Shown here piece by piece: positions 1,911 to 52,704 of a stretch of DNA of 64,000 nt. Position numbers and translations under genes: made by a program. The stretch is from the NCBI GenBank assembly GCA_001599295.1, contig BCGN01000002.1, positions 372,001 to 436,000 of the forward strand, given 5' to 3'. This DNA comes from Sporopachydermia quercuum (Eukaryota). Every line of letters starts with the position of its first letter. Positions within the stretch are counted from its first letter, which is position 1. The notes under the pieces were generated by a model. The model saw only the letters and a program-made list of their open reading frames with translations, searched no databases and had not been told where the DNA came from.

Positions 1911-1980
1911 AGTCTTCAGCTTGAAATATATTGATCCTTGATTGCAATGTTGAAATTTTTGTTCAACTACGCAGAATGAG

Positions 1981-2137
<157 letters not shown>

Positions 2138-4805: not shown

Positions 4806-4865
4806 ACCACTTGTCGGAATACCACTAGTCGGAATACCACTAGTCGGAATACCACTAGTCGGAAT
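4806..4865. repeat. 15-bp tandem repeat x4 (ACCACTAGTCGGAAT)
   Basis: Four consecutive units; the first has one substitution. Confidence 0.95.
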
Positions 4866-5299
4866 GGGTCTTCTCAACTTCTGAAGCTATTGATGTGGAT
4901 CCTTTTACAGAGGTCTTCCCGCCTAGTTTTGAGTCCTTTGTCTTTCCTGTTTATACATTGCCGTCGTTTATTTCCTCTTCGAAAGATGAGCCTAAATCAC
5001 CATCCGGTGGGTGAGGTTAATAAGAATTGGGGATGTCTAAGTCTAGTAATTGTAGAAATAATTCAGAAAACACAGGAAATTTCTGAAATTTCACCGAAAT
5101 AAACACAGAATGTGGTACTACAATTCAAAATCTAACATTTGGCTGGGCAGTAGACCGAGATCTAATATATGGATATATTAAAGAGGACTATGTCCTTACC
5201 CTTACTTTTAAGGTACAATTTTGGAACACTTGGAAAGCCGAATTTTGGGTTTCGTTATATCATTCTGGCATATCATATTGTCCGGCAAGTTCAAACCAT

Positions 5300-6330: not shown

Positions 6331-6889
6331 GAGAAAGCTATATAGATTACTTAAAGGTGAATTACATACTTTTTCGCAGACACATTCGAAAGCGTNCGTA
6401 CAAGACTTCGCTTCAAGACAATTATATAATAAGTGGAATCAACTGAACCACACAATCATCAGATTCCACTGGTTCCTTCCGTCAGAAGAGAAGGGAGGTG
6501 ATGCCGACATGGATGCAAAAAATTGAGGAGACCTAGACTTCGTTTCGTATTTTGAAGTCAGTGGAATCAATTCTTTCGGCCCTCCCCATATCTTTTTTTA
6601 AGTTATGAGATGAGTAATTCTTAAAAATTGAAAGCATCTCTTTAGATCTGCGATTTTTAGATCCATCATAGAAAAGTAATAACAAATTATATTACGATCT
6701 ATTGCTCAAATGTTCGCTGTTGATGATTAGGAGTAAGAGGAAATAATTTATTATTGTATATATGGGTAGTCAGTCAGTTATAAGTACCTACCAGTGCATG
6801 TGAAGATCATACAAATTAACTCTTCACTATATAGAATATTTATAGAACATATATAAATATATATATAGAAAAAGACTTGAGAGGAGGCT

Positions 6890-7110
6890 TGTTCTCATTC
6901 AAGTACTTTCTTTTTCTTTTGATCCTGTGGGGAAAACCTAAGTTTCGGATCACAAACTGATAGTGTGGTACTTAGAATAAACTGGAATACCCAGAGAAGC
7001 CGCAAAAATCTAAGGTATTCTTCTTGTGTATCATATGCTGTTATAGACCATCCTAGAAGAGGCGAGAAAGCTCTAATATATTCCAGAGAGCGCAAGTATC
7101 TTGCATGAAA
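6890..7110 (-). mobile_element. Second LTR-like copy, inverted relative to 3423-3654
   Basis: The reverse complement aligns by eye with 3436-3650, sharing blocks such as CAAGAAGA.TACCT.AGATT.TTGCGG.TTCTCTGG.TATTCCAGTTTATTCTAAG and ACTTAGGTTT...GATCAAAAGAAAA. It may extend to ~7185. Confidence 0.65.
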
Positions 7111-8033
7111 CTTTCTAGTATCCTTAAGAAACTTCCAAAACCGTAAATAAAGTGTTCTCAAGAGCTGGAAAATAATCCAGAGCAATGTGGTGGATTTTTG
7201 GACTATATTCCTCTATACTTCCACAATAATTTCTTCAAATATTGTCAATCGGTTTACTACTGCAAGACCACCTTTAAGAGCCAAGGGTGAACAATAAATA
7301 ATAGATCAATGGTTCAGTTTCTATCAATTCTACTACTGTTGTTATACGTAATTGAGTGATGTGCGTTACTGTATATGGTTTGTCACAGCAATTGAACTAT
7401 ATTGTCCGAATAGTTTTAGTCGGAACCTTTATAAAGGACCAATACTAGGAGGTTGGTTGTGCAAGTTAAGCATTCATTAAAGGATTTTGATTTCACTATT
7501 ATGAAAGATTTTCCAAACGGAATGTCAAGATCGTCAATATCGTTTAATCAAAAATGCGATTCTATCTTCCATTTTTGTTACAGATTGATTGATTATTATC
7601 AAACCTATCGGCTATTAGAATTGCATTTTATCGATCTTACTATCTTGGATTAAGCATGGAGAATGTAACTTCTTATATGGCTAAATGAGACTATTATACT
7701 CTGAATAATATATGAATCCTTTCTCTACCTAAATTAGGAATTACTAGTAAATGAATTATATGATATATAATATAATTATAGGAATTCTATAATTTCTAAT
7801 ATTAAAATAGAATTGAAACCAAGTTTACTCTACTTTAATATTAATTGTATATTATATTTATTTGAATTTATAAACTAAAAGGATCAGGAGTAAATGAATC
7901 AATTTTGTTTGATATTTTTCTTGTTTGCTATTTGATTATTTTCCGTTTGACACTTGAATTATTATCTGCTATTCGTGCGCTATAAATAAACGCAAAGAAT
8001 AAAAAGTAGGCCTATAAAGAAATGAATTAAAAC

Positions 8034-8470
8034 ATGTCGAAAGTGACGGTTCAGACACCGTTGTTCACAAGCGCTTCAGTGGTCCTGGCAACTTTACCGA
8101 GGTTGAGGAATCCGTTTATTTCACTCGGAACCTGAAGAAACATTTTATTGTAAGGGTTATAGATTATCGACCGGTGGAGCTCCTAACTGCACTGATCCCT
8201 TTATCAGATTTGAAGGCTGCAAAAGAGATGTTTCATATTTTAGAGAGCTTGGACTCAATATCATCAGAGCATAATCAATCAGTTGATAATAACGCAAGGA
8301 ATACCTCAGAATGTATGCAATTCCTTCAAGAGGCAGGATATATCTCATACACGATGTAAATCTACCTGAAACTTTCATTGGTCGATATGAGCCAGCTTTT
8401 TCGCTGCTTACTTCAACATATTTCGCAATAATTGATGTAGATATTTGCTAATTGTGCAAATTTGCTTTTT
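8034..8470 (+). pseudogene. GH72 beta-1,3-glucanosyltransferase (GAS5-like) pseudogene, 5' fragment
   Basis: Frames joined across indels give a signal-like N-terminus, then 'ETFYCKG/IDYRP/GGAPNCTDP/LSD../CKRDVSYFRELGLNIIR/SVDNN...SECMQFLQEAG/IYLIHDVNLPETFIGRYEPA...LQHI.AIIDV'. This is colinear with Gas5 (FYIRGVDYQPGG..TDPLAD...RDV...LGINTVR..VDN...CM..LQE.GIYLILDVN.P..ISRYDPA...YLQNVFATID). Confidence 0.85.
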
Positions 8471-9532
8471 CGCTACCACTGCCGCCCTTCCTAGCTTTTG
8501 TCTGTACGGTTTACTCTGAGCCTTCCTTCTATGAGTATCTGGAGAATTTTTAAACAGCTTTTCATGGCATCCAATGCCATGTACATTTATTCTCAATCCA
8601 CAGGATTCAAGGCAAGAAGTAAAAACTGACGGAACACTCCTTCCTGATGTTTCATATCTACTATGAAATTTGTCATCGGCGATGTATTGGGTTCATTTTC
8701 ATTCATAGCTATCTAGAGTTCACCAGATGCTACACGAAATAGTTTATCGAGACCAATTTCTCGGATATTTAAAGATTTACCAGGGTTGATTCTTCTCTCT
8801 AAATGACTCAATGTGTTAAATAATGAAAGTTAGTATAATCTGGACAAAGTCACAATCTAGATTTCACTGGTAGAGCAGAGCAGCTCCTGGACTCAATGAC
8901 CCCAGTTCACAAGAGTTTGTTACTAGTGATCCCCATTGTCACCTTTCTGCACAACTAGGTGTTCTTACAAGGTGTGATATCTACGAGACAAATAACAGAT
9001 GATTCATGGATCACCAAATTGATGCATGATTTGACAAGTGTTGGATCAAATAACAGCATGGCATTTATATTAGAACAGAGTGCTGGTTCAATTAATTCAA
9101 ATAAAAATTTGAATGAACTGATTCGGTGCGCTTTCAAATTCACGATTATGTCAAGAAACGCTAAGATATTCTACTTGTTCCTCATATAGTTGGTTCTACG
9201 AAATCGACTGCCTTACTGACAGTTATACCCGCTTTCGGTATTCACCTGTGAATAATGAGGAAGAACTGGACCTATTGATAGATAAGTTACCTCCACCAAT
9301 GACATTTTGAATCAGAAGTTTTCTTTAAAAAGCTATTGCATTCTTGTGCAATAGGGCCAGTGAATAGATACCATACATACGCTACACTTAACTCAGCTTG
9401 TTTTTTGATTGAAAGTTGAACTAGAACCTCTCTCCTCGAGATGTTATACTTTTTCCGTGGACTATTACTATTACTATTATTTTTACGTACCTGAGCTCCG
9501 TATCCCTTTAAAAAATGCGTAGCCCTAAAAAC

Positions 9533-9557
9533 AAAAAAAAAAAAAAAAAAAAAAAAA
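9533..9557. repeat. Poly(A)25 tract in a purine-rich run
   Basis: Directly visible. Confidence 0.9.
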
Positions 9558-10864
9558 GAAAAAAGAAAATTAGATAGAAAAATAGAAATAGAAAAAATAA
9601 ACAGAAAGAGTAATGGGATTAAAAATAAAGAAAAAGTAAATCATAGTGAAAGAACTTCATTTCATTATCAATCGATTCTTTACCTATTTATTTAGTCTCA
9701 TTATAACTAATCAATTGTTATTCCAGTATGATGGATGCATCGGCAGTACATTAATTTGTGGATATCCATCGGTGCACTGAAAAAAATGCATTCGTATCTA
9801 GAAACCAACCTTTATTGAAGGAAAAGAATTCTGGTGCAGGTAGAGAAGAGAGTATTGGGACAAGGAATAGTAAATGTAAGTTGAAATTTCAAAGAAAGAA
9901 TAGGATAATACAGAGGTAAACAGGTAGTCCGCGCCCAATGCTGTTGTCATGCCTGCTCGCTATTAGGTTTAGGCATTGCTAGTGTATTTGTTAATCCTTC
10001 ACAACCATCATTCGGAAAGACGCACTTGGTCATATGACGCAAATAAATGATGAGCTTTACAACATAACATACAAATACCTTTTTTCAGGTAGCAATTGTA
10101 GGTTCAATCCTGATTTCAACAATGACGTTTTATATAGAAAATTGATATATTCCTTTCTAAACATTCATCAAGCTTGATATATAATATAATGATACTCAGT
10201 ATTTTATGATAATTAATCACATATTTTCCGAAATGGGATTAATTATCTTTTCCGATATTAGTACGATTGTAAATAACGGAACCAACATATAGTATCCGAT
10301 ATTCAACACTCTCACCAGATATAACTTCCGTAATCTCGACGGTTTTCATCAGTGGAAAAACTGCTCAAATCGTCTACCTCCTTGATTGAGATAGTAATAG
10401 AAATATTATAATTGCAACTGATCCATTGCAACTGATAAAAGGACTTACTAAGAGACCCTTTGTTTAACCACAAGAATTACCTGAGGTACAACAGCATTTG
10501 TTGTAAGAATAACAATTCGTGCTAAGCGATCGGCATTGGTTCAACTGGGATTAAATAAACGCAAAAGCTTGGAGAGCTTAGGTTTAGTTAGGGATACTTC
10601 GGCGAGAAAAATAAAAAAATATTTCATTATGTATCTCCTAAAAATATCGATTCTTCTTTATAAAAAGTTTATGTCCTGGATATCTAACACGGTTACTAGT
10701 AATCTACTTAAATATAGATAATTTTTTTAATTCGTCAATAAAGAATAAATCATACCTAAGGTATGATACATGAAGGAAGTATATGTACTGTTCATTTCGA
10801 TCTTTTTCCGAAATTGAATAACAAAACTGTCTCATACAATACGAATGGCAACTACTTTTAACAT

Positions 10865-15085: not shown

Positions 15086-16300
15086 ATGGCTGAATCGTTC
15101 CTCAATCAACCAATTGTCATAGACAATGTGAGTATTCTTCTTTCGCAATTTTGACTCTGTCTTCCTTGGCAATTTTTAACACGGTTCAAAAAATCTTAGG
15201 GTAGTGGTATTATGAAAGCAGGGTTTGCAGGGGAGGAGCATCCACGAATTATAATTCCGTCATTGTTTGGGAGACCTAAGTATAAGCGAGCAATGGCAGG
15301 TTCCATAGAAGGGACACAATTCGTAGGTGATGTGGCTCATAAACTGAAAGGATTGTTAAGACTTCATTATCCTATTGAACATGGTATAGTAACAGACTGG
15401 GATGAAATCGAATCTATATGGTCAGCAATAGGATCTAACTTGAAAGTTTCATATGAAGATCATTCATTCCTCCTAACAGAATCTCCATTAAATCCAATTA
15501 ACAACAGAACAAAAATGGCCCAGGTATTTTTTGAAACATTCAACGTACCGGCACTCTATGTTTCTATACAAGCAGTGTTGGCACTTTATTCTACAGGACG
15601 AACAACGGGCGTTGTGGTGGATTCGGGCGATGGCGTAACACATACAGTACCTGTGTATGAAGGCTTTTCTCTTCATAACGCTATTAGTAGGATTGATATA
15701 GCTGGTAGAGATATTACTGAACAACTACAGTTCTTACTTTGGAGAAGTGGGCATAAACTCCAGTCGTCGTCTGAAAAAGAGATTGTTCGTGATATAAAAG
15801 AAAAGAATACATATGTTTCATTGCATCCTAAAAAGGAAGAGAGAGAATGGAGTTTGTTGCCAACGGATAATAGTAAATCAAAAGGGTCAACGTATACACT
15901 CCCAGATGGAAAAGTGGTAAATCTGGGACAGGATTCTTTCAGGGCTTCAGAAATCTTGTTTGATCCCACGATTATAGGCTCGGAAGATCGGGGCATTCAT
16001 GAGCTTGTACTGGACTCCGTAGGGAGAACTGATCTGGATTTGCGATCAACTCTTTATTCTAGCATAATTCTATCGGGTGGTACAACTCTTTTGAAGAATT
16101 TCGGTGAAAGATTACTGAATGAATTGAAAGCGGGTACACCAAAGGGCACAAAACTGAAAATATTTGCACCACCGGAAAGAAAATATAGTGTGTGGATTGG
16201 TGGGTCGATTCTGGCAAACCTAAGTACGTTCAAACAATTATGGGTAACCGCGAATGAATATCGAGAGAATCCCGATCTGATTCACACAAGGTGTCTATAA
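15086..16300 (+). CDS. ARP1: Actin-related protein 1 (centractin, dynactin); exons 15086-15127 and 15200-16300
   Basis: Exon 1 MAESFLNQPIVIDN, intron GTGAGT...TTTTAAC...TAG (15128-15199), then GSGIMKAGFAG. Actin fold with Arp1-type 'NQPIVIDNGSG' and 'APPERKYSVWIGGSILA'. Confidence 0.93.
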
Positions 16301-21479: not shown

Positions 21480-22397
21480 TTCAAACGGAGAAATACAGTA
21501 GCGTGAGGAGATTAGTTAACGGTACCATTTTGGGGCTTTTTCATCGTGGTGACGTTCGCTAGTGTAGTAGTATATATTTCACTATATCTTTTAATGACGG
21601 AACGGATATATCAAATATAGTCATCGAACCAGAAAATTCACAAGTGTGTCTAGTAGGTCTGATGGAATGAAGGGGGNCTATCAAATTATTGACAAATGAG
21701 AAATGATATAGAAGTATAAGTCAATTGGAGAATATATTTAGCTCGATATTTAATGACTCCTTTCAAATGGTATGTACTCCACAGTAAGATCTTCTCGTCT
21801 GCTAGATTTTATCAACGCTAGTGATAATACAATCGTTCCATTTATTTGTTTTCAGGCAATTTGTGTGAAGAGGTCATCATACACTTAATAGTCAGATACC
21901 CATAAAAGCATACGCATTCGAAATTCTTGTGACATGCAAAAGTACTACTCATTCTATATGTAGCCAACGAAAGGAATCATTCAGATCTCATCCAATTAGA
22001 GATTCAATAAGAATAATTAACAATGACACAGTAGAATATAAATTGTTTTATGCTTTACCCAATTAACTATTATAATATGCACTTTCCTTGAATCATCCAG
22101 ACACTTCGACTGTCTTCCCCTGCAATATTTCATACGGAGACATTGTAGTGAGGTTGTCTTCAGACAACCCCCATTGAGGGGTCATACTCTTTCTCCATCC
22201 CTAGTGAGATCTCAAACTATACTTCCATCAAATAGATTGATTGGACTACAATAGAAAGTAAATCGGGCAAAAACAACAACTAACTGGGTTGTTTCCTGTC
22301 GCAGAAGACGAAAAGACACATATAAAAGAATAAAATATGAGATAGTCTGTCCAAAAGATCTGCAAACTTGAAGCTTGAACTCCCACTACCCGAAATT

Positions 22398-37485: not shown

Positions 37486-38337
37486 CTTAAAATTGAATGA
37501 ATGATAACTCTCTCTTGCTCAATATCAACTTAGTCAAGCGACAGTGAGCCTAATATTGTATACAGATTGCTGAGATAGTTTTCAGAATCTATCTCGGCGT
37601 TATCTTCTAATGTAAAGATTAATGTTTGATAACTACGAATATTAATTGCTTATATGAGTTCATTTGAGATAGATTAACACCATAAGCTACCCCAGGTTAT
37701 TTGATACTTTCAATCCTTTGCACTAATGATTGCACAATTCAATCTTGAGATGAATAACTAGTTTCACATCTCCATTTGTCTTTGAGAACACCCAAACAAC
37801 TTAAAATTAAATAACTATATAAGCTTTCATTTCCTAATTTAGTGTACCTGCATAATACCACATATGACCACAGGATATTAATTACATTTGATCACATAAA
37901 CGTTGATAGTTGAGTTGGCTCCAAAAACCTTTCATCAATGTGTGGTGTTATAAACAGCCATTCCAGCATAAGAAGGGAATAGCTTGTATTTTAAGGTAAT
38001 GATGAAGATGTTTAGAACTAGAAATTATATAAAGGAATATTGCTAGAGTTCGTAGTAATCGAATATTTTTCTGATATAATCCGGATTATCAGGCTCAACT
38101 AAGGCACAAAAATATAAAATGTATGATTGTATTTTCTTGGATGGCTATTCATATTGTACACGGTATAAATTATATATGGGGTAATCAGTAAGACCTAAAA
38201 TAATAATACACTAGATTCATAAAATTTCATGGTTTCTCTTGCATGAAGGTCTCCCTGTTCTCTTTATTCGTTCGCTTACTTCTTCTCTCTGTTGACTCTT
38301 TTTTCATTCAACCTTATATTATCAGACCACATTCTAT

Positions 38338-40374
38338 TCAAGCATCCATCATGGTAATATCTCGAACAGAGGATTGGTCAAGGACAGGCTGACCCTCATC
38401 GATTTCACCTTTGACAGATGACCATATCTTACCAGAGCGAACTGAAGAATCAAAACGGTGCTTAAATGGGAATGATGGCTTATCTGGGACAACGTTTGGA
38501 GGAATATCAGAGAGAACTGTGGCTCGTGAGTTCCCACTTGACTTCTGAAGGGGACGGACAAAAGCAGAGTTCACATCTTGTTCCTGGGGTCCGTCACGAT
38601 AGATGTTCGTTTTCCATCCATTTTTCAAACCGGGTGCTCGGGCATTAGTGTTGTCGGCGTTCAGTTTCAGTAAATGGATGTCTTTTCTCTGGTTATCGAT
38701 AACATTCTGTAGTTCCATGTTTTTACGTTTTGCATCAAGATATTCATTTTCCAGGTCTCTTAACTGTCTTTCTAAAGACCGTGTCAATAACTCACTAGCT
38801 AGTTTTGTTTTATCATGTTTACATTTCTCCTGCTTTAGAATATCCAACTGCGATTCTTTTTGCTCTAGCAACATTTCCTGTTGTTTGATCTTAGACTCCC
38901 GCACTTCAAGCTCAGTTTGGAACATGATCTTTTTTTCCTCGTACTTCTTGATGAACTGTTCTTCCATATACCTATTACGTTCCTGAGATTGCGAAAGCGT
39001 TTTCTGAAGTTTTAGGACTTCTTCCGATCTAGCCGACGCAGTTTCTGTTATGATAGATAGCTCAGTCTTGAGTTTTGCATAATTCTCATCTATATTACGC
39101 CTATTCCTTTCTGTTATTTCACTTTTGACCATTTCAAGTTGATGAGCTAGTGAGCCATTGTCTCGACTTAACTCAAGATTCCGAGATTGGAGTAATTCTA
39201 ACTGGTTTCTGAAACTTGCTGCTGTTTGAGTTGACATCTCTGTTTCATTTTTCGTCTGACTTACCATACGTTGCAATTGATTGATGTGATTTGCTTGCTG
39301 TTCCATCATGTGTTTTGATTCAATCAGTTCTTTTTCCAATCCAGTGTTCATATGATATTGGTCGACGTATTTGATCTCAGGAAACACTGGCTGCTTTATT
39401 GTCTGAACATATTGTCTATATAATCTATCGTAATATATCAGAAGTTTAGTATTCTTTCGTATTTCAAAATTAAGCTGGGATTCTAAGTCGATTATCAGTT
39501 CATTCTGCTCCTTAGCAAACTTATAGTAAAACTCCTTCTCTTGGGCTATCTCATATAGTTTTGTAGAATCATTGATCTGTGATCTTTTTTTCTGTATGTT
39601 ATTAGAACCATTCTTATTAGTGATCTGAAGAGTCGGTATGGAACTAATACTCTTATTATTGACCTCAGACTGAAAATTGCCAACTATTTCACTCAATTTC
39701 TGTTTCTGTATGTATACCTGCTGTAAAATATTCGAAAGCTTCTTTTGGAATGGGTCTTCGAGCTCCAACATCTCAACTATTTCAGCAACAGGTTTTATAT
39801 CAGAAATCCCTGAAGAAGTACCGCCTGTAGTATTACCGGTTTCCCCAATCAGAGGATGATGTGGTCTATCTATTTTCTTCTCTCGAGAATTAGAGTCTAT
39901 CGGGTTTTCATTTACTTTGCCAATTAAGTTTTCAGTTTTCGAAACCCAAGGACTAGGAAACTTTCCTGGATAATCGACAGCTAAACCGCTCTTCGAGTTT
40001 CTACTATATTTGGTTCCATATGTTGTCGATACGTCGAACAGTGCAGTCGCATTCTCATCCTCATCATTCTCGCCTTTTTCCTTGTCAGTAATGGGCAGTA
40101 ACTTGCTACTTTCATTGAAACCTTTAGCCCAAGAGACTGTTTTCAGTTTACTTGCTGTTCCTGGGGTTTTGAGAATGCCTCCATTTAGTGTTCGAGTCGG
40201 AAGTCGTATAGGTGTTGAAAGTTCATCGAGATTTTTTGCTTGTGGTTGAATTATACGATCTCTAGCTAATACAGATGATAATCTGCGCTTTACGTCATCT
40301 GAAAGATTTCTGTTGTTCTCTTTTTCCGGTTTCTTTCTTGGGAGTTCAATCATGGTCGCCGAATTAATTGTCAT
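38338..40374 (-). CDS. Spindle pole body coiled-coil protein (Cut12/Bbp1-like)
   Basis: 'GILKTPGT...KTVSW' and 'PGKFPSPW' motifs followed by a long coiled coil. Confidence 0.7.
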   Translation of the reverse strand: MTINSATMIELPRKKPEKENNRNLSDDVKRRLSSVLARDRIIQPQAKNLDELSTPIRLPTRTLNGGILKTPGTASKLKTVSWAKGFNESSKLLPITDKEKGENDEDENATALFDVSTTYGTKYSRNSKSGLAVDYPGKFPSPWVSKTENLIGKVNENPIDSNSREKKIDRPHHPLIGETGNTTGGTSSGISDIKPVAEIVEMLELEDPFQKKLSNILQQVYIQKQKLSEIVGNFQSEVNNKSISSIPTLQITNKNGSNNIQKKRSQINDSTKLYEIAQEKEFYYKFAKEQNELIIDLESQLNFEIRKNTKLLIYYDRLYRQYVQTIKQPVFPEIKYVDQYHMNTGLEKELIESKHMMEQQANHINQLQRMVSQTKNETEMSTQTAASFRNQLELLQSRNLELSRDNGSLAHQLEMVKSEITERNRRNIDENYAKLKTELSIITETASARSEEVLKLQKTLSQSQERNRYMEEQFIKKYEEKKIMFQTELEVRESKIKQQEMLLEQKESQLDILKQEKCKHDKTKLASELLTRSLERQLRDLENEYLDAKRKNMELQNVIDNQRKDIHLLKLNADNTNARAPGLKNGWKTNIYRDGPQEQDVNSAFVRPLQKSSGNSRATVLSDIPPNVVPDKPSFPFKHRFDSSVRSGKIWSSVKGEIDEGQPVLDQSSVRDITMMDA

Positions 40375-43300
40375 TATCAACTCAACATTTCTTGTTCAGT
40401 TTATATACTTCCGAAAAAGAAAATTAAAACATCAAGCAAAAGCAAATAGTGGTGAATAAATCAGTACTCCGTGAAAGTGAGCGTTTCACTTCTTTACAAA
40501 TGATCTGGCTCAAAGTGATTCAGTTCTTTGTCAAAGGGTTGATTAAATCAAACAGGATTAATGATAATCCTAGTCAGCTTGTGTAGCAATGTCTTTTGAA
40601 TTTGCAAATTCGTATTATCAAGTGAAAATCTCGGAAGCTCAATTACAATTTATAGTTTTAGTTATATGAATGTTGAAACAAACCAGACATATGTGTTACT
40701 ATGGTGTGTTATTGATGTTAGGTAATGTAATTTGAGTTTTATATTTTTATTTGTAAGGCCTGATAGTAATTTGATACTAATCAGTAGAAATATAAACACA
40801 TTTTGTTGTCATGACAACCCCATCACGTGATTATAGATAAATGATTATGTAATCATTGGTATTAATCCACCAATAAGGCGAAGCATAAGAATGGGACAAT
40901 CGCTGGTATCAAGGAGAAATAAACCATGACCGACTTAACTTTGAAAGTACGAAATTGCACGATAGTAACAGGAATGAAATTAGAATTAGAATTAGAGGCA
41001 TAAAGTCAAGTTCTTCGGAGGTTGAATAAGAACGATTCCATCATCTAAAATATGAGTGTCTTATCTGCATGATTGTTAAGCATTTTTGAAATGATAAAGA
41101 AGTCATTTCCATCGTTGAGGTGAATAAAAAACGAAACAAAAAAAAAATTTCTTGAACTCGACGTCTGCGAACCTATACTCTTTATCTCATTAGTGCCGTT
41201 TCAATATAAGACTAAATGATGCGCACGGTGTTATTGTTCAGTCAAAGCACTCCTTTTAAAAAAAAATCCCTAGTACTATTTCAGCTAGTTTTTGTTTTAT
41301 CTTGTAACAAAAGTTGTCCCTAAAAGAATGTGGCTTATCACTCGTACATTCTTTCCGGAGATCTATAATCAATCTCTCACAAAAAGCTGATAGCAGGAGC
41401 TTTTTATATCAATCAAAGGCAATTGCTTACCCCGTAACTTAGAAGTTTATTTTTCTTCGTTCGCGCTAGTCTCAATGAGGAGATTACGAAGTAGGGAATT
41501 GACAAGATATAAGGTTTAATTTAATGTCACCTAAATAGAGTATATACTATACACGTACCTGTAATGGGTACCTAAAATTTCAGTTGCCAGATCAAATATT
41601 CGTTTATCTTGTTCAGGGCTTTTGATTTAACTCTCGTCCTTCTTTTTNCGCTATAGCATACGTTTGAATGAAAAGAGATATGTAGTTATCTTCAGCAAGA
41701 ATCAACTAAGCCATTCAGTTCACTGCAGAGATCACACAGACCGCGTGTATGCAACAGCAGTGTTTGATTGACTATAGTCTATTTAGTTCAAGGGGTTGTA
41801 TCATTGCATTATCAATGGTATCAGGGAAGCAAGCTAGCCTAAATGACGAATTGTATAAATAGGAAGAATGGTACGGTTTTATGGACAGCACACTAAACGT
41901 CACAGTAGCGGATCATAAACCAACTAACTTGATAAGAAACCTTAGTGGTATAATTCAGATGAAGTATATATACATATATTTTTCTCTTAGTAATGCTATG
42001 AGTACCAAGTTTCAGTTCATTCAAACAAAATTAATGTTATGGCAGACTTATGTTCTTTAAAACCAAAGTTTCTATCAAACCAGGTGAGGCTACCTGACAT
42101 TACAAACTCTTCATTATTTCCATCCTCAAGCGTGACCATTCTACTTCCAAGTAGTATATAACTTTTTTATATTTTTCTTTTTTTCAACTAATTCAAATGA
42201 ACGTGTTAAAATCCAAACAAAAATCAGAACAAATTCATCATACATTTATTATTGCAACAACTGTTACTTGACTTGTATTCTTTGGAGTCCCTATCATTTG
42301 AAACGGAGTTAAGGTTCATCCAGACTGCCCCATAGGGATACCATACTTTTTATGGTTATTTTTCCATTGAGTTATTCGCTAAAACCTAATTCATTTCCTC
42401 ATTCTCTCGTTGACAAAAATTAAATGGTTTTCAAATCAAAACCAATTAGATCAAATCGGTAATGTCAACCAATTTATTAAAGTAGGATTTAGTTAGCGCA
42501 GAATTTTGGGCTTTTGCTGACAAAGAATTGAATCAACATTCAATAAATGTTGAAGACCCATCCCTCATTATGTAGTTGGGTTCAAGCTCGACACACAAAC
42601 CCCCATTGTTTGTGTGGTTAAATTAAGTTTTATATACAGAAGGAGTACCTAGATATAGAGTAGAGAATTGGGATATTTCTAGGAGGGGATTGCGTACTAT
42701 TTTGAAGTGATTCGGCTAATTTTGTGATGCGAAATTCTCACTAGCAGTGTTCCTTGAGCAGGAAAAAACATAAATAAACAAGAACATTGATCTAGTTGTA
42801 TAAGGTTTATCGTTAACTGCCTTTCACAATAAACGTGACAATTCAGTTGTAGATGCTCTTTCTTTAAAAACCCAGTTATAATAATCATTTCCAAATATCT
42901 CCATGGTTACCAAATCTTTGAACTAGTGATATTGCCATTATCTTTTTTGCCGTAATTGGACATTTTTTGGACATAGAGAGTTCGTCTACCATTAAGATTC
43001 TTGGAAGAATTAAGATGGACGCTATACCATTTTTATGATTAATCATGATTCTGACTAAAAGTAAGACTTTCACTATTCATTGTCTTGAAGTCCCTTGATT
43101 AACGAAAAAAATAGTTTACAATTGACATCAATCATTTGGCAGTTTAAATTGTAAGATATCACTACTAGCAGTTATGATTGATACGAAATACATCAAGCAA
43201 CACAACAATAATTCTGGCGATTTTTCGTCTATGACTTGACAAATCTGTGACAAATAAATATTGTAGTGTTACGTAAATTCAACAATCTATACATCATCCA

Positions 43301-44489
43301 GAATACTAAAGACCCCTAGCATTCAGCGAAGATCAATGTAAAAAAATCAGAACGGTAATTATAAAGTAGTACATCTCGTTGCAAGTTTAGTTTAGATGTT
43401 ATGTCATTGGACTAATTTTACCAATTTTTATTGCTTAAACAGAAATAACAGAAAGTAGGACAATTAGATGCGATTTTCAGTTAGTTAGTCCAGTGGAATC
43501 TAAAGTCAGACAAAAGTTGTCCGTCATATTTATAGAATTTTAGACAGAATGGTTTACGCCATGCTATCTGTAAATCTCACGACCTCTGTGAAGATTCTGC
43601 AAAGGTTAGATGAGTGGATATAGTTTGGAATTAGACTACTAGAACAATTACATATATATAAATTGTTCTTAAAATTCGATTCTTTGAGACAAGTAGTAGT
43701 GATGAGATAATTACTTTGCAAGAGATGTGATCTTTATCAAAAGGGGACAAGGGAGGCTTAGCGATTATAAGAACATGTATCTGATTACTCTTTGTATTTC
43801 CAATAGCGTTGATAAAATGCATATTTTATTATTTTCAGTTATTCTGCGATTTCACCTGTCGCTGGTACTTTTCCAACAATGTTTATTCTATTAAAATAAA
43901 AATTGAAATAAACTCCGTTTACTTAGGTTCACCATACATAAGAATAAACAACCGAAGGGCCCATGCTTATAGATCAATAAGAATTATATCTATATTTTTG
44001 TTATGTTTGGTCTGTAGTTTATGATTCAACTGTTTCATAAATGTATAGGAATTGATTATCACTTAACGATCTAAAAGCGTAAATATTCTACATCGTACTA
44101 ACAAATAGAAAGGATTAATCAAGCTTGTCACTACGATAGCTTCTGAGCTTACGATAAGATTCTCTATACTATTGAGATGAAGAAAAAGAACCGTTGAGTT
44201 AGTACGATGTCTAAAGACCTAACCCCCATCATTGAGAAGATGCAACCCTACACGTTCTGAAACAGTAAAACCCATTCAATTGCGTAACCATTATTAAAGC
44301 TTAAACGAACGCATAATGGGCATAATATAATGTGCATAATGTGTCCAACAACATGCTCAATATTTCTGGCGCGGTGGGACGCAGATTTATGCGCTACTTC
44401 CTTCTCTGAGGAACGCTGGGAGGAATAGGAAAAAGAAGGGAACTCGTTTCTTGAATAAAGGACTTCCAAACTACAATGGACATCATCAT

Positions 44490-45510
44490 GAGGTTGCGCA
44501 AAGCTCATGCTCCGATTGAGATATCGCCCGTGATATCAGGAGCATAGTAATTCACCTACGTAAAGGAAAAAAGTCGTCCTTTTAAAACTTTTATTGATCT
44601 CTCGACCACCATCCTATGTCTGGAATGGATTAAATTGAAATATTCCTATTTGTTTGCAGGATCATCAGATCCTTTCGACCACTGATTAAGATAATATGGA
44701 ATTCTCCGATGTGGGGAAGGTACCTTGGCCGATAGACGATAGCCTGCATCCTCAAAAAAATAGTTGCTAGGGACATTGAATCCCTCAGTACACAAAACTT
44801 CTAGTACATGCCTTTCATGAGCTGAACCTTCGCACCCAGCTTTGACATACAGAAACTATTGATTGAAAACCACCAGAACGTTTATCGACCCAAAAGCCAT
44901 TCTATTCCTAAAGACTTCCATATTGCCTTTGATATTGACTGGAGCATGAGTTCCATCAAGTGCACCCAAACTATTACGAAGTAAAGGTGATTCTTTGCCA
45001 AACCATTAAANCTGAAACGGGTAAACTAATCCATTTTATCGCAAATTTCCTAAAGTACTTACACATCTTCCGGATGTAGGATCACCTCCGCCCTTCAATC
45101 TATGGGATCTTTTAGCATCCTATTTGAGTATCCATGTAATACAAACAAATAAATCGCTAGCTCCTCACGGGCTGTTACAGATTTAAATCTCCAAGACCGA
45201 AATTATATAATTTTCTTCTCAAATCATAAGTGTTATTCTATTCATATGCCCTTTCTCGTCAAGCTACCATAGCTTGCAAGAAGATTTGTAAATTAAGGAT
45301 TACCAAATATCCACTTGTAAGATTTCCCTTTTCCAGCTCTTCTTTACTTTCGAAGCTCGATGACAAGTTCAATGATTTCAACTACCCTGGCACATCGAAT
45401 ATAGAACCCGATATTGTCGTTGCTATTGTGTTGATCAATATCATCCTCCAGAAACTCATCACCGGACGAGGAACCACTTTCGGAACCCGAAATTCCGGAC
45501 TGCTCAGATA
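44490..45510 (-). mobile_element. Decayed PIF/Harbinger-type DDE transposase (DDE_Tnp_4/HARBI1-like)
   Basis: Acidic N-terminus, 'VTAREELAIYLFVLHGYSNR', 'FRNSLGALDGTH' (~44946-44980), 'FRNR', 'FLYVKAGCEGSAHE', 'YFFEDAGY' (~44738-44762) and 'EYFNLIHSRHRMVVERSIKVLKGR'. Several stops and frameshifts. Confidence 0.9.
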
Positions 45511-45749
45511 TTATATCTGCTTCAAATTCAATGAGTATCTTTCAAATCCACCGCTATGCTCAAGGCAGACCAACTAGCGTTATTCTCGCTTTCTGCGTTC
45601 GGCCAGATTAGCGCAGGCAATTGGAGGCCTCCTCAACGAATTTTTCCCATTCCGAATCACCATTGACATCGGCCAAGAACCGACACGAGTGAAGTAATCG
45701 TGTCAGGAGCGGTGACAGCTTTCAATCCGCAAGCACCATTAAATAAATA

Positions 45750-46682
45750 TCAGGCTTGCGAGCGGACTATCTCGAATATCAGAAGCGTGGAAAGTGGAAA
45801 GTGGACGACAGTTGTTCCCGCATACGGGTCTTCTTTTTCGATCGCGACTTCACGCGTTGCCAGTGTTACCAGCTTGCATTTGACGGGAACACAGCCATAA
45901 TCGGTCGGCGTTACGTCCACGAGAGCGACTGCGCTTAATCCAAGAGGTTCAAGCGAATCAACGACCTTTTCACTGGAAGACTGGCCGTGTCTGGCAATCG
46001 CGATAGCATCCTCCCGTGTGATCGGTGTTGGCTCTCCTGTCCGGTAAGGCGGACACGTTCTTCCCATTGGGTCAGGTGAGGCAATTGAGAGAATATTTCC
46101 TCTGTCGCGCGCACGAATAATCGGGTTGTCCATAGTTGCGCATATCTTTCCATATCTGCGAGATTGGGAGAGTCTCTAACCCAAAGCGGTCTTTGATCCG
46201 ATAACTGTTTGTCGATTATCGCGCGATGTGACGGCAATACCGACAGGAGACAAGGGATTTCGCCATCAAGCGCATCAATATCCATGAATGACCTGAAGTA
46301 CTTTTTCCTGTCCTGCATCAGCTCGGGAGGGAAAGACCTCTTGCTGTCGCCGATGGCAAGCCCCGAACACACCGTCAGAAGGTTGCGGTCAGTGGAAGAA
46401 TTTAGGGTAGTGCATATTCCGTAAGTCGAATCTGGAAAAAGGGTCTTTTCTGAGAACCGCCTTTCAAGTTCCTCAGCTATTAGCTGGAAATTACAATAAA
46501 TATCGGTGTCTATCTGCGTTACCGGAGTTTTCCGATACCCGCCTGTTAGAGCGGTTAGTTTCGGCTTTGGCAAGAGGATTTCCGCATCAAACGATAGTCA
46601 TGACTGACTTTTGTGGCAAGGACCAACAGAACTTTTCAGTAAAAGGCAATGATGCAAAACGATGCGGCATCACTTCAGTCAT
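45750..46682 (-). pseudogene. Bacterial-type glutathione S-transferase family pseudogene
   Basis: MTEVMPH...SLPFTEK (ATG 46682), then 'PKPKLTALTGGYRKTPVTQI..DIYC', 'W.ERV' and, after a frameshift near 46040, 'EDAIAIAR...VDVTPTDYG..PV..L....EVAIE..DP.AG..VVHFP'. At least three frame disruptions, no introns, visibly GC-richer than its flanks. Confidence 0.88.
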
Positions 46683-48723
46683 TGTTGCAATACAGATTAT
46701 GATGTATTAGAGTATATTATAATAATGAAAAGTTTGTATTTGTGAGCTTTTTTATGGCCTAATAGCAATCAAGTCAAGAGAACTTTGATGCTAGTAAATA
46801 AAGGTTCTAAATAGATCCTGAATTGAGTCTTGGTGTAACTATGTTAGTTACCCGTCCTTTGAAGAAATTGATGAAAATAAGGAGGTAAAAAAAACTAAGA
46901 CAGTAGAAAATAAGAAAATATGCAGTTAAACAATGGTAAACAACGGACGCTATCTTATTGAATTTGGGATATTTCCCAATATGATATTACAGAGATTGTA
47001 CAATCAAATAAGAGTTTCTCCATATTATTTTACTAACCTCTAACTACCATGACCATTCCTTAATCACCGGCTATCTACGTAGAATTGTAAATTGTCTCTC
47101 GGCTTGTTTTGAGCCACTTCTGTAATGAATAAGTTTCTACTATATTTCACAATGAACAGTAATTGTATCTGCCCAATTAAGTCCATTGACCTACTTAACT
47201 GGTAAATATGTCACGTGAATATATGGGACATTTTTTGTTACTATATGGTAATTAACCCTTAACAACAACCACCACCAACACCAAAGTTCAATGACATCAT
47301 GGCAAACGCGTACTATTAGAGATTAGAATTCTCTGACATTCCCGTGGTTGAGCTTTTTGTCGTAATACTAATTAATTAATATTCAAGACAAAGTTGCCTA
47401 TACAACGGACACATTATCACCTCATGAATATATAGAGCGATGTAAGCAAAGAATGTTTCAATCATAATGGAATTAATTTACATTGAATCGCTGTTAAAAT
47501 AAGTTGGATAAAAAATGTATCGATCCTTGATGAGCAAAATAGTAAACTAAGTGTCTAGAATTGAAAAGGAAGATGGAAAGAAGAATTAACACCTAGCCAA
47601 ATATTAATCCCTGAGTTTTATTCTAAGATCTATGCGAATTATTTATGATTTGATTTGTCCGAAAATTTGAGATTATATAGATTCTCCTAAAATACTTTGC
47701 TTGAATCTTCCTAAGTACTCCTTAAAAAAATGAATGAGACATAGTTAAGCTTTAGAAAGCTTAACTAAGTAGTTCAAGCAAACTTTGTAGGAGTCAAATG
47801 TATTTTATACATTTGGAATTTTAGTTACTATCAGTACATCACGTACCTAGTTTCACTAATATTTTAGTACGCTTCGATATAGCTTTGGCGCGTTGAAAGA
47901 TTAACGCTATTGTTAATATTTCAACAAACTTATAATAAGAATTTTAGCATTTCTGAAGCTTCTTTAAAGTTTGGACTATATTCTGTATCCACCAAAACTT
48001 TAGGAATAGAAGATCTCCATAGCGATTTTTGATGCAATTGAAATTAATTTTGTTTGAAGCTCAAAATACTTGAAGTTCATATTAATATAATTCTGTTCCC
48101 ATTCCAAAGAATTCTTCATCACCTCGATAATTGAGTACTAGAAACCTCTTCCTTTTGTTTCTCATTCTTTCAATAACTCAAAGTCACAAAGAGGTATTCA
48201 ACAACCTGAGAATTCTCATTGATTGTATGTCACAAATAAGAGTTGTATTTTTTTTCCCCTTCACTTGCTAGATCATACATTGGTTTTTTGAGAGCTTTCC
48301 AATAATTGGGAAAAGCTGGTATAGTCAAGACATAAGTACCAGGGGTTTCAATCAATGATTCATTCGTTCACTAATATTACAAATTAATCTATTCACTCGC
48401 TTCTTTGAATCATCTTGAAACATTCTCTACCTCGAATTAGATCTGATATTGTAATTGCATTCCTTTCGTTTCATTTCCTGATCTATACATGATTTAATGT
48501 TCATGCTATAGTTCTATAATTTTCAAACAATTTGATTAATTTCCCCCTTCTTTAGACTTGCATTTTTGGTGGATTTTTGTTGATTTTCTTTTTCTATTTT
48601 TCATTTACATGGGCAAACTTGGTTTTGGGTTAGATATCATTCATTAAAACTATTACTACTTGTATTTCATCAAGGAAGATAATTTGAGCTAGCATTTAGA
48701 CATAACGGTCGATATTATACATA

Positions 48724-50346
48724 ATGAAATCCATTGATTCAGGTTCACGATCAAAAAAGGCTGTTAAGCTTGAAATGATAGAACATGAAAAGAACTCTAT
48801 GTTGATTAGAGAGTATGCAGAAGACATTTTCGGTTATGTTCACGAGTTGTCTTCTATCACAAAATCTGATCCAGTTATGATCGATCAGCAACCTGAGATA
48901 CAGTGGTACATGAGATCTTGCCTCTTAGATTTTTTATTGGAAACTCATCTCAGTTTTCATTTGCATTCACCTACGCTTTATTTGTCCATTTCAATTCTTG
49001 ATCGATACTGTTCAAAACGAGTTGTTTATAAAAAGCATTATCAGCTTGTCGGCTGTACCGCGTTATGGATAGCTGCGAAGTATGAGGATAAGAAATCTCG
49101 TGTTCCCACTTTGAAAGAACTAAAAGCAATCTGTGGTGATGTTTACGATGAAGAAATGTTTGTTCAGATGGAAGGACATATACTTTCTAGTCTTGATTGG
49201 CTTATTGGAAGCCCCACGATTGACACCTTTGTCTCTGAGATTCTAACCACTTATTCCAATAACTTTCCCCATTTGAATAATCAATCAAGTACAAGAAATC
49301 TGTCAGTTTCTGTCTCATCAGCTATGATCAAATACTTGTGTGAGATGACGATGTACTATAGAGATTTCCTCTTATTTACACCCTCGACGATTGGACACAC
49401 AGCTTTGATCCTCTGTAATGAAGTTAGCAGCTTCATTCATTCAAATCAGTTTAATCCTTCTGTTATTGAGATTCCATTGAGTTCTTTGATCGAGAAGGAA
49501 GTATCAGATAAGCTAGAAGAACTTTCTTTAAAAAGACCAACTGAAAATGGGATTGAAGATGTTTTTGTCGATCCTGAAGATAGGAAGTCACCTTTACAGA
49601 AATGTCTCGAGAGGTTTTTGAGTATCTTGGGTGAGCCTTCAAGAGTGCTAAGTCATAAATATTCCCGTGATTCAGTTTCTTCTATGGTACAAAAGTATCA
49701 TGCTGCTATGAGAACTTTTATAGATGAAACGAAAGATGTGACTATCCAAGTTCATAAAATGAATTTGATGAATGCACAACTTGAAGTCGCAGCCCCAAGA
49801 TCAAACTCGGATGCTGATCTTTATATGAGGAAGACAGGTATGATATCAAATCAATCTACTGAATCACTGGAAGTTTATCGAAACGCAATCAATAGACCTG
49901 GAAACTGCATTTTGCCACCTTCGCCCGCGTCGGCAACCAACTCCCCTGTGGTACCTTCCTTTCCGAATGGATCAAGATTGACAAATATGAATCACTATAG
50001 CTATCAACCACCACCACAGTACGGTGGTCCAACATCAAACAGCCGAACAGAACCCCAAGTTACTAAAGACACTTATATTTCTCCACCGTGTACTCCTGAT
50101 ATGGTGTTTTTGAATCAACAGAATCAAAATGCCTCGAACAACAATGTTTCTTCGACAGGAAGAGTAGCGCAGCCTTGTTTTTTCTCTCAAAATGGCTCAA
50201 GGTATCAACCTAAAAGCGTGGAGTCTTGGTTTAAGGACGTGAATCAAAGTGGAAGAGTTAAAATGAACAGAAATATGACCGTTGATGGCCCTTTGGATAT
50301 GAACATGAGCAACTACGGATATAGAGAGATTAACATAAATCTGTAA
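48724..50346 (+). CDS. G1 cyclin (Cln/Hgc1/Ccn1 family)
   Basis: Cyclin box 'MIDQQPEIQWYMR..LLDFL...LDRYCSKRVVYKKHYQLVGCTALWIAAKYED' and an S/P/T-rich C-terminal tail. Confidence 0.93.
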   Translation: MKSIDSGSRSKKAVKLEMIEHEKNSMLIREYAEDIFGYVHELSSITKSDPVMIDQQPEIQWYMRSCLLDFLLETHLSFHLHSPTLYLSISILDRYCSKRVVYKKHYQLVGCTALWIAAKYEDKKSRVPTLKELKAICGDVYDEEMFVQMEGHILSSLDWLIGSPTIDTFVSEILTTYSNNFPHLNNQSSTRNLSVSVSSAMIKYLCEMTMYYRDFLLFTPSTIGHTALILCNEVSSFIHSNQFNPSVIEIPLSSLIEKEVSDKLEELSLKRPTENGIEDVFVDPEDRKSPLQKCLERFLSILGEPSRVLSHKYSRDSVSSMVQKYHAAMRTFIDETKDVTIQVHKMNLMNAQLEVAAPRSNSDADLYMRKTGMISNQSTESLEVYRNAINRPGNCILPPSPASATNSPVVPSFPNGSRLTNMNHYSYQPPPQYGGPTSNSRTEPQVTKDTYISPPCTPDMVFLNQQNQNASNNNVSSTGRVAQPCFFSQNGSRYQPKSVESWFKDVNQSGRVKMNRNMTVDGPLDMNMSNYGYREININL

Positions 50347-52704
50347 CCTGACTTATATGATTAATGAACATAATTTATATGATACTATATTTTACATCAT
50401 ACTTAGGCGCTATGTTGATTGCCTGTGGTTACACCACAACCACTAAGTAAGTGCTGGGTTGTCATTAACCTAACCTGTGTATGAGTAAATTACAATGTTA
50501 ATTGGGACGGCATATATGACTTTGATCGTAATCTCCCTTCATATATATTAGTAAGTAGTTAATTGTTTTAGCTTTGAAGGTTGAACTTCTAGGTTATTAT
50601 ATCCCTACCAGATTCATTTCTTACTACATGAATAATCATGGCTCGAAAAGGATTCGCATACATCAGATTAAGGTATACAGATATTTATCAATCGAATTTA
50701 GCTATTGTTGACAACATGGAGAGCTACTCTCGCTCTTCTTCTAAGAATAGAGTTTCACTAACCCCAATCCGGTAACTAGGAAATTTGATCGAACAAACTA
50801 AACCTGAACTAAATTAGACTAAAGAAGGGCTATAGGGAATCTCTATTTTTGGATGAAGATATATATTCCTTTATACTACTGTGGGAAAAAAAGAAATTGA
50901 AAAATTGAAAAATGCTAAAAGGGTAAAAACTAACAAAAAAAGGTTTTCACACCGTTCTATTTTTTGTTTATTTATAGTGCTAGTCATTTCATAAAAAGAT
51001 TTAAGCAATTGTTAATTCTGGGGAAATGATGAACTCTAGCCTTCTAATGGCACATATCTCAGTCTCATGTTAGTGAGCTCGACGCTTCTTCTCATTTCAG
51101 GTAGAGTTGAGGTGGAGAAATGAATTTGTCGGTGTGTCTATTAGGAGGTTACTTGAATAGAAACCTGGAGGGTAATAGTTATCATTCTTAGGTTTGTCCA
51201 ATTGGTTAGGTTGCATTTAAAGTTCTAAAATAGTTCTATATAGGATATCGATATCCTATTAAGTCAGGTTAAAAGCAAGTAAGTTTGACTGTCTGAGTAT
51301 TCCGAATATTAGATAAATTTTGACAAAGTCGACTGAAGAATAAAGTTGCGTATGCAAGTAGAAAAGTAATAATAGAAGGTTGAAAGAATGTTTGATCCAC
51401 TTGCTTTTGTCATTGGTGATGGATTTTACCGAGAAGACCACAAGTCACTATGTATAGCGACTAGTACATATATATCTATGTATTTATCTATACATATTAG
51501 TTCCCCATCAACAACGCCAGAAACAGTCGATACATATGCTAGGCTATAACTAATTGAATATCTCAATATTTCCAATATGCTCCAGTAACATGTTAACCAA
51601 GGTACATGCGATAGAATAATTAAAAGGTAACCTGTTGCCAGCTAATACAGCGAAGAACATCGATTGACTACCTCGCGAGATCCGCTTGAGGAATGAGAAT
51701 CTCAGATGTCAGGAACAAACTGCAGTCGATTTTTAAAAACAAGGATTCAAAATCAGGTGAATTTAAGCACACTTCATTGCTTATCCTTAAATATTCTTTC
51801 ATTGAACAAAATATGCAAACACAGGTATTAATGATCTGTCTCACTAAGGTTGCATACCATGTAATATCATTTCATCCCATCCAATTCTGAACCAAACATA
51901 ACACCTAGCATTGCTCGCTATATATTATACATTCTAATTAACTCATTTTTAGTGACTCTCGTTAGCCTTTAGGTTTAGTGTCTGAAATACCTGACTAATG
52001 CTCTAGAGGATACAATTATTACTAACTTTGTCACGTAAAGTTGTCTAAAAAGCTTTGTACCATTTTTCTACTATTTGAATGCCGAAATGCCCGGATATTA
52101 CAGATGAGAACATCCAACAGTAATAATAGTTAAATTTGATATACATGCAATAAGTGGTTGAAAGTATTCATGTTTGAAAGAGCGAGTACTACATTCATAG
52201 ACAGTTTCATCATTATCATTTATACCTATACAAAGGTATGCGTACTTTAACACATTGGAACGCTCATGATAATTACATCATGATAATTACATCATGATAG
52301 ATGACAATATAAAAGAACAAAGAAATCTAAAGTGGGATATTATTACTAATCTACTAAAGCTAACAGGCCAAGAAAGCGATGATACTCCCAATAAAGAAAT
52401 CAGGTAAACAACCATAAACAACCAATATCAAATATATTTAGAGTATTGACATGAATATAAAAGATGAACTCGTACTAGATCAATTCAGTAGAATACTAGA
52501 ATAAACTTTCAGATTTTGAAGTAGATAACGAAAATGATGGGTCAATTCCAACTATTCTCAAATGATGAGATAAGTTACAACCTACCAGCGATCACGTTGT
52601 TGAAAAGCTTGTAGATAATAATTAAATACAATCGCCTTCTTTTGTTAACGCAACAAAAGAAACCGAAAGAAGGTACATAGAAATATCCGGAACTTGAGCC
52701 AATA

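Follow-up and report, generated by a model that had tools for sequence, protein, structure and literature searches.

The window analyzed here is a stretch of 64,000 nucleotides from Sporopachydermia quercuum (GenBank assembly GCA_001599295.1, contig BCGN01000002.1, positions 372,001 to 436,000 of the forward strand; all coordinates below count from its first letter). Within a long, otherwise gene-poor interval of this window, the minus strand carries a decayed GST gene and, a short distance downstream, the relic of a transposase of the PIF/Harbinger type. A previous description of the locus, made from the letters alone and referred to here as the original prediction, had drawn attention to these two decayed, co-oriented frames, and both were found at the place where it had put them. 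Comparison with other contigs of the same organism places the GST gene inside one copy of a Harbinger element, other copies of which lack it; the locus probably represents a decayed member of a multi-copy transposon family into whose 5' leader a block of foreign DNA carrying the GST gene has been inserted.

The GST pseudogene and the transposase relic

The GST pseudogene is of full length and intronless, and it occupies positions 45750 to 46682 of the minus strand, with its ATG codon at 46682-46680 and its stop codon at 45752-45750. Its reading frame is broken by a TGA codon (46600-46598) and by two frameshifts, one near 46616 and one near 46040, and the resulting pieces (46682-46617, 46615-46040 and 46040-45750) align end to end with relatives of 308 amino acids. 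When the 220-amino acid frame at 46597-45935 was used as the query, 201 proteins among 408 candidates were matched at E ≤ 1e-3. The closest relatives among the matches listed are P0002 (E 6e-81, 73%), a protein that is found only in assemblies of public sequencing runs, and the Zygosaccharomyces parabailii protein BZL39_H02390 (62%); the Z. bailii protein ZBAI_00723, a shorter gene model, stands at 51%. The domains GST_N_3 and GST_C or GST_C_2 are present on the relatives, while the broken frame itself returned only GST_N_2 at E 0.055. Residues 1-304 of P0002 match the PDB entries 4kf9_A (E 3.7e-53) and 3ic8_A (E 3.1e-50), which are the closest solved structures.

The core of the transposase relic is a DDE_Tnp_4 (PIF/Harbinger) domain at positions 44400 to 45005 of the minus strand, which can be read in a single frame that is interrupted by four in-frame stops (three TAG and one TGA). 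Its translation, with the stops written as X, is recognized by the Pfam profile DDE_Tnp_4 at E 1e-9 and 38.6 bits (cut-off 24.8). A word-based protein search with the relic yielded none of 258 candidates at E ≤ 0.001, but an exhaustive phmmer search of 1.84 billion representative proteins did find relatives, with 1457 matches at E ≤ 1e-3, 455 at E ≤ 1e-10, a best E value of 1.4e-25, and identities of 39-46% among the top matches. In the BLASTP alignment with the best match, P0243 (38% identity over 170 residues), the D, D, E motif positions are kept (GALDGTH/GAVDGTH, EDAGY/GDAGF and VVERSI/VIERSI). The columns of these three residues, which we take to be the catalytic ones, are invariant across an alignment of 28 transposase sequences, and the Atlas clusters for P0243 are exclusively of the general Harbinger, ALP1 and HARBI1-like kind.

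A putative N-terminal part of the transposase gene is found in another frame of the same strand at positions 45012 to 45541, with a putative start at about 45541 and ten stops in 176 codons. BLASTP recognized no relative of this frame. A profile built from 28 of the 150 listed transposase matches, picked for a length of 370-460 amino acids, gave a weak hhalign match to it (E 0.002, probability 14%, residues 121-150), which corresponds to a conserved 'S..EKL.IFL' segment whose distance from the DDE domain is as expected. The switch of frame between the two parts adjoins an N in the deposited sequence, located exactly at 45011, so that the frameshift of the transposase could partly be an ambiguity of base calling. 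From the stop codon of the GST gene (45750) to the putative start of the transposase frame (~45541) there are about 210 nucleotides; the two frames are thus close neighbors, as had been noted, although the gap had been given as about 250 bp.

Contiguity of the locus

All sampled words of the segment 44200-46950 are contained in three sequencing runs of one organism that come from two studies. One contig of the run X1 (20.1 kb) and one of the run X2 (38.6 kb) each cover positions 38000 to 51000 with 0 differing letters, and both carry the same lesions in the GST gene. The word depth along these spanning contigs is flat (35.4 in X1 and 102.7 in X2), and there are no loose ends at the edges of the GST block. 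Since spanning contigs exist in two runs, a join that was made only by the deposited assembly is ruled out.

A contaminating GC-rich GST block, or a chimeric join, is nevertheless an explanation that the locus invites, because the composition jumps abruptly and because the window contains eight single N bases (953, 2771, 5624, 6396, 21677, 32436, 41648 and 45011), the last of which lies within the transposase relic. It has to be set against the single contig per run, from two studies, that traverses 38000-51000 at uniform depth, without a differing letter and without loose ends at the block edges, and against the pseudogene lesions and the AT-rich element DNA that borders the block on either side, both of which fit a long residence. 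We give an artefact hardly any credence, and the possibility of a chimeric assembly that the original prediction had raised is unsupported by these contigs.

A piece identical to positions 46083-46318 of the window was also seen in run X4, which stems from a second organism but from the same study as X1 and was picked because it contains words of this stretch. This 236-nucleotide contig has a depth of 2.4 and is probably a carry-over between libraries, less probably the sign of a true second holder; we do not regard it as evidence of a second host. The pieces seen in run X5 were disregarded, as they measure only 21-34 nucleotides. No RNA run was among the runs matched by the sequencing-run search for 44200-46950.

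The GST block is nested in a multi-copy element

Further copies of the element were sought among the contigs of X1 and X2 at a likeness of at least 80% to positions 38000-51000, and the pieces given here are those among the matches listed. Besides the copy in the window, parts of 44211-46832 recur on at least three contigs of this organism. In the first of these, a contig of 41,189 nucleotides (X2 record 5), the segments 44375-44454, 44581-44722, 45120-45169, 45394-45508 and 46718-46762 are found colinear and on one strand, with a further piece (44211-44247) indicated by a joint and a loose end; 74 of the 432 aligned letters differ, so that the best-kept parts are about 83% identical. The interval from 45508 to 46718, with 1209 nucleotides in the window, is represented by 103 nucleotides in this contig. 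The second locus (on contigs of 154,225 nucleotides in X1 and 50,640 nucleotides in X2) matches 45281-45461 and 46810-46832, and has 213 nucleotides between 45461 and 46810, where the window has 1348. The third (a contig of 24,106 nucleotides; records 3 and 7) matches 46691-46771. The contigs that carry these copies equal the main contig in depth (98, 99.5 and 99.2 versus 102.7 in X2; 33.7 and 33.8 versus 35.4 in X1) and hence represent single-copy loci of the same genome.

The lengths of the two junctions that lack the GST gene are consistent with each other: the 103 nucleotides of the first and the additional span of 139 nucleotides predict about 242 nucleotides for the second, and 213 were observed. 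Because both sides of the GST gene are matched at two loci where they are only 103 and 213 nucleotides apart, the GST gene lies inside the element, and does not abut it as the original prediction had supposed. Likewise, because other loci match parts of 46691-46832, the AT-rich DNA that immediately precedes the GST start codon is element DNA. This 5' leader (46691-46832, minus strand) is defined by the matches 46718-46762, 46810-46832 and 46691-46771, and in the other copies it lies 100-200 nucleotides from the 5' part of the transposase gene. On the far side, downstream of the transposase domain, the 3' part of the element (44211-44399, minus strand) is represented in the 41-kb contig by the pieces 44211-44247 and 44375-44454. 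The bounds of the insert can thereby be set at ~45510-45560 and ~46690-46717; it consists of the GST gene, about 200 nucleotides of GC-rich 3' flank and at most ~36 nucleotides ahead of the ATG codon. The 3' flank that came with the GST gene (45509-45749 of the minus strand, GC-rich in its part 45545-45749) is missing from both of the GST-less copies.

Neither edge of the block bears a mark that stands out from chance. The best direct repeat is the eight-nucleotide ATATTATA at 45508-45515 and 46714-46721, which is reached in 162 of 300 shuffles, and the inverted match at the edges is at chance level (286 of 300 shuffles). Among the matches listed, no contig of X1 or X2 other than the spanning one lies on 45509-46690, so that neither a second GST copy nor a parent gene of at least 80% likeness was seen in these contigs, which can miss rare variants. 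The 64-kb window itself holds no other copy of the element that we could find.

These relationships bear directly on the possibility that the GST gene and the transposon are independent neighbors, which arrived separately in a permissive gene-poor interval with the GST gene outside of the element. The interval is indeed long (~8.3 kb) and otherwise devoid of recognizable genes, and the termini of the element are unproven; but element DNA is present on both sides of the GST gene, and these same sides are colinear and co-oriented at two loci where they are separated by only 103 and 213 nucleotides. We therefore hold separate arrival outside of the element to be very unlikely. The original prediction had left the choice between element cargo and independent insertions, and had pointed to other copies with termini that exclude the GST gene as an objection to the former. 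Copies without the GST gene do exist, yet their homology brackets it; nesting thus favors cargo with respect to position, but not with respect to mobilization, since just one GST copy has been seen.

Apart from the question of the GST gene, the 41,189-nucleotide contig has 1554 nucleotides opposite 44454-44581 of the window, where the window has 126. This stretch falls within the C-terminal part of the transposase and is probably a nested insertion in that particular copy.

Candidate ends of the element

By its homology to the other copies, the element spans at least positions 44211 to 46832. The loose-end letters of the other copies, when inspected by eye, resemble the window for about 30 nucleotides past 44211 and past 46832, and the element therefore probably extends further out. 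A candidate left terminal inverted repeat is located at 43799-43836, with a possible flanking ATT at 43796-43798, and a candidate right terminal inverted repeat at 46906-46961, with a possible flanking ATT at 46962-46964; if these are the true ends, the element would span 43799-46961. The original prediction had recognized no convincing terminal repeats by eye. The ungapped core of the present candidates, an inverted match of 28 nucleotides between 43809-43836 and 46906-46933, attains a score of 36, which only one of 300 shuffles reached (mean 23.6, standard deviation 2.5). Another inverted match, of 27 nucleotides, pairs 43792-43818 with 21806-21832 (89%, E 0.005), a site 22 kb away; it could not be extended, and it may be due to chance or represent a solo end.

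Composition and relationships of the GST gene

The GST gene has a GC content of 0.496 overall and of 0.507 at third codon positions (GC3), and its 3' flank (45545-45749) has one of 0.488. The 17 host open reading frames of the window range from 0.344 to 0.419 in GC and from 0.263 to 0.433 in GC3, so that the GC3 value of the GST gene lies outside of the host range. The DDE part of the transposase (GC 0.411, GC3 0.371) is native-looking by this measure, and the element DNA is AT-rich (GC 0.289 for the leader, 46683-46938, and 0.336 for 43804-44399), as is the flanking intergenic DNA (0.31-0.33). The composition of the GST block thus sets it apart from the host as well as from the surrounding element.

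The family to which the GST gene belongs is largely bacterial. The large Atlas clusters nearest to P0002 consist to 98-100% of Bacteria, mostly Pseudomonadota, and 574 of the 598 pattern-matched stretches from prokaryote genomes (one per species) encode GST relatives. The best of these in comparison with P0002 are from Nocardiopsis yanglingensis (55%) and Enterobacter mori (54%), with all others at 48% or below. In a metagenome scan, 565 of 599 stretches encode GST relatives, the best at 47%, so that nothing close to the yeast GST clade was found there.

Two trees were calculated, a quick one with 63 rows (62 of the 120 listed matches and the window GST) and a careful one with 34 rows (31 of the 120 listed matches, two prokaryote loci and the window GST). 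In both, the window GST, P0002 and the two Zygosaccharomyces proteins form one clade, with a Shimodaira-Hasegawa-like approximate likelihood ratio test (SH-aLRT) value of 100 in the quick tree and support of 100/100 in the careful one; the stem of this clade has a length of 0.6, and the window GST pairs with P0002 (98/86). The careful tree, which is unrooted, places the clade within an 18-row group (92/82) of unresolved internal branching, together with all five other named fungal sequences (from Niveomyces, Cladophialophora, Auricularia and, twice, Trichoderma), one from Nocardiopsis and further rows without a name, while the named Enterobacterales and Achromobacter sequences lie outside of this group. 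An approximately unbiased test, in which the nine named-fungal, window and P0002 rows were constrained to one clade (rejected at p 1e-43), was discarded as ill-posed, since it forced rows that stand beside the named fungi out of the clade.

By these sequence comparisons, the GST family is mainly proteobacterial, and the proximate source of the window GST was probably another yeast or fungus and not a bacterium; a direct bacterial donor is unlikely. Because its nearest relatives are non-bacterial and lie within a group that holds named fungi, the label 'bacterial-type' that the original prediction had given to this GST is fair for the family only.

The same tree contains a further pairing of bacterium and fungus. 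The GST of Nocardiopsis yanglingensis (L081) and that of the fungus Niveomyces insectorum (P0008/P0009) are sisters, with support of 100/99 and short branches of 0.087 and 0.18, which suggests either a recent cross-kingdom transfer or a fungal contig in the bacterial assembly.

Decay, order of events and a possible mechanism

The two relics differ in the number of stops that they have accumulated: the GST gene has one in ~311 codons and the DDE part of the transposase four in 202, to which the ten of the N-terminal part can be added. Given that a share of 0.040-0.051 of point changes creates stops, the stops of the DDE part correspond to about 0.13-0.15 changes per site (interval 0.04-0.39), and the one stop of the GST gene to about 0.03. 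If the weakly verified N-terminal frame is included, the contrast between the GST gene and the transposase has a Fisher p value of 0.005. Together with the unameliorated GC content, the contrast in stops suggests that the GST gene remained functional for longer than the transposase, or that it arrived after this copy had died.

The combined evidence has to be measured against the idea that the GST gene is ancestral cargo, that is, that the GST gene was already on board when the founder of this Harbinger family arrived in the genome, perhaps through horizontal acquisition of the entire element from another yeast, and that the GST-less copies are deletion derivatives that spread later. Such a history would account for a GST gene that is enclosed by the element and co-oriented with the transposase, and a mobile vector could explain why the closest named GST relatives occur in a distant yeast genus; furthermore, gene-carrying Harbinger and other DNA transposons have been recorded in fungi and oomycetes (PMC12730594, from the portions of its text that were retrieved). 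However, the divergence in GC3 between GST gene and DDE part, and the low GC of the leader (0.289), would not be expected of one shared history. The junctions of the two informative GST-less copies are similarly short, which indicates a single ground state without the GST gene. Moreover, decay seems further advanced in the transposase than in the GST gene, and just one of at least four loci contains the latter. We consider ancestral cargo to be unlikely.

We prefer the insertion of a foreign GST block into the 5' leader of one copy, and the course of events can be envisioned as follows. A foreign block of about 1.13-1.21 kb would have entered between the transposase gene and the terminal region, the block and the transposase gene being co-oriented. 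The block would have consisted of a promoterless, intronless but complete GST gene with about 200 nucleotides of its own 3' flank and almost no 5' flank, and it may have been joined in where the element had suffered a double-strand break, through either end joining or template switching during gap repair after an excision. As the GST gene has the same orientation as the transposase gene and its ATG codon lies within ~36 nucleotides of the leader, it may have come under the transposase promoter; it would then have been transcribed from the element's own promoter, and the transposase of this copy would have been uncoupled from it. The GST gene would have been kept for a time, or would have arrived after the death of the transposase, and would subsequently have decayed through one nonsense codon and two frameshifts. 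As to the timing, we see an even chance that the GST gene was inserted in place into a copy that was already dead; its capture by a then-active element is possible, although we lean against it.

Several observations speak against this reconstruction or weaken parts of it. The runs X1 and X2 may share their sample with the window, and the contiguity that they document is then no independent replication. The junctions of the block can be placed only to within ~30-50 nucleotides, the 103 and 213 nucleotides of DNA found in the other copies are uncharacterized, and one joint rests on as few as 23 nucleotides on its shorter side. The case for a foreign origin of the GST gene draws on its composition and its patchy distribution only. 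The contrast in stops is not significant when the GST gene is compared with the DDE part alone (Fisher p 0.16), and the end branch of the window GST is long (0.44 versus 0.12 for P0002), so that this gene may have been decaying for longer than its single stop implies.

With regard to the element itself, a six-frame Pfam scan of 40400-48700 disclosed no Myb/SANT-like second gene at E ≤ 0.01; this lineage may lack such a gene, or decay may have made it unrecognizable. The gapped extension of the candidate inverted repeats to 43799 and 46961, with their ATT flanks, was placed by eye, and 102 of 300 shuffles reach its score. The target-site duplication of Harbinger elements is usually TWA, and the only three-base flank found by eye here is ATT, which could be a chance occurrence in AT-rich DNA; a duplication of 3 bp is described for Harbinger elements (PMC12730594, retrieved text). 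The terminal repeats are consequently no more than candidates, and the expected TWA duplication did not turn up beside them.

With these reservations, we regard one decayed copy of a multi-copy PIF/Harbinger element, with a foreign GST block inserted in its 5' leader, as the likely explanation of the locus.

Host background of the interval

The gap in which the element lies contains no ATG-initiated open reading frame of at least 150 amino acids between 40374 and 48724. It is bordered by an open reading frame for a 678-amino acid coiled-coil protein (38338-40374, minus strand), labelled Cut12-like in the original prediction, for which no Pfam match was found at E ≤ 0.001, and by a CCN1-like G1 cyclin gene (48724-50346). 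The six-frame Pfam scan returned nothing but DDE_Tnp_4 at the threshold given above, and tRNA and Rfam scans of 40-49 kb found no family; the gene-free interval of about 8 kb that the original prediction had outlined between 40.4 and 48.7 kb is thereby confirmed. Another long gene-poor stretch without such an open reading frame extends over positions 1-10864 of the window.

The window has the look of a yeast or of a related ascomycete; its host genes are compact and include one for a fungal zinc-cluster factor and one for a nuclear complex I 49-kDa subunit. The best named relatives of the CCN1-like cyclin are from Spathaspora, Candida, Yamadazyma and Lipomyces, with 35-50% identity over part of the protein only; by this measure the cyclin is nearest to yeasts of the CUG-Ser clade, while the nearest named relatives of the GST gene are from Zygosaccharomyces. 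A reading of CTG as serine by the host, by which an imported gene would be crippled, was considered and dropped: CTG accounts for 1.0% of the 7523 host codons and occurs at a leucine of the GGSIL motif of an actin-related protein, a position that we presume to be conserved. Judged from its genes, the host seems to belong to a divergent lineage with the standard genetic code. The open reading frame of the actin-related protein (15212-16300, plus strand) is without the first ~15 residues, which suggests that a 5' intron is present.

Comparison with known systems and biological meaning

The element shares with PIF/Harbinger transposons the DDE_Tnp_4 domain, the D, D, E motif positions, the presence of several diverged copies per genome, and candidate short inverted repeats; it differs from them in that the window copy is dead (four stops in the domain, a change of frame, and ten stops upstream) and in that no Myb/SANT-like gene was detected by the scan described above. 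The GST gene, for its part, belongs with a subfamily of proteins of ~305 amino acids (4kf9_A, 3ic8_A; Pseudomonadota), with which it shares a full-length match and whose domains GST_N_3 and GST_C_2 are found on its relatives. The window copy differs as a pseudogene and by virtue of its closest relatives, P0002 and the Zygosaccharomyces proteins, which are non-bacterial.

Pack-MULE-type gene capture offers one comparison for a transposon that has come to carry an extra gene. Closer at hand are the gene-carrying DNA transposons of fungi and oomycetes: TET/JBP genes are carried by Harbinger and by ten other transposon lineages in fungi, including hAT and EnSpm, the HarbingerS elements of oomycetes carry a SET gene, and the edges of gene segments shared among fungal DNA transposons are described as having no special structure (all from PMC12730594, as far as its text was retrieved). 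The S. quercuum locus resembles these cases in the presence of a complete non-transposon gene beside the transposase, in the existence of copies without the passenger, and in its plain edges. It differs in that the GST passenger is of no evident use to the element, is present as a single copy, and is dead, as is the transposase. It differs also in its host, which has a compact yeast-like genome; in most Saccharomycetes there are fewer than 20 copies of DNA transposons that bear a transposase (PMC5751038, in its retrieved portion). Within the articles and article sections that it returned, a full-text literature search produced nothing on a GST within a Harbinger element or on this yeast GST clade. 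The locus thus adds to the known gene-carrying DNA transposons, and is unusual for the type of its host and for the before and after states that are present in one genome.

One could go further and propose that Harbinger elements serve as gene vehicles between distant budding yeasts, that the GST clade common to this organism, the source of P0002 and Zygosaccharomyces spread as transposon cargo, and that the present locus is a fossil delivery. For Tc1/Mariner elements, horizontal transfer in which Saccharomycotina take part has been reported, and the giant Starships are known carriers of large cargo (both from the accessible part of bioRxiv 10.1101/2025.06.16.659975). We find such a role for Harbinger elements doubtful.

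As a single dead copy, the locus has its value as a documented example and as a lead. Cases in which a gene that was probably transferred is physically joined to a mobile element are rare, and this is one of them. The entry of foreign genes into compact yeast genomes, and their first expression there, are poorly documented at the level of single insertion sites; one such site is preserved here, with a complete gene of probable foreign origin placed right behind the leader of a cut-and-paste transposon and with sister copies that show the state before the insertion. It thereby bears on the question of whether small DNA transposons, besides the giant Starships, carry genes between fungi, and on the question of whether transposon promoters help newly arrived genes to become expressed.

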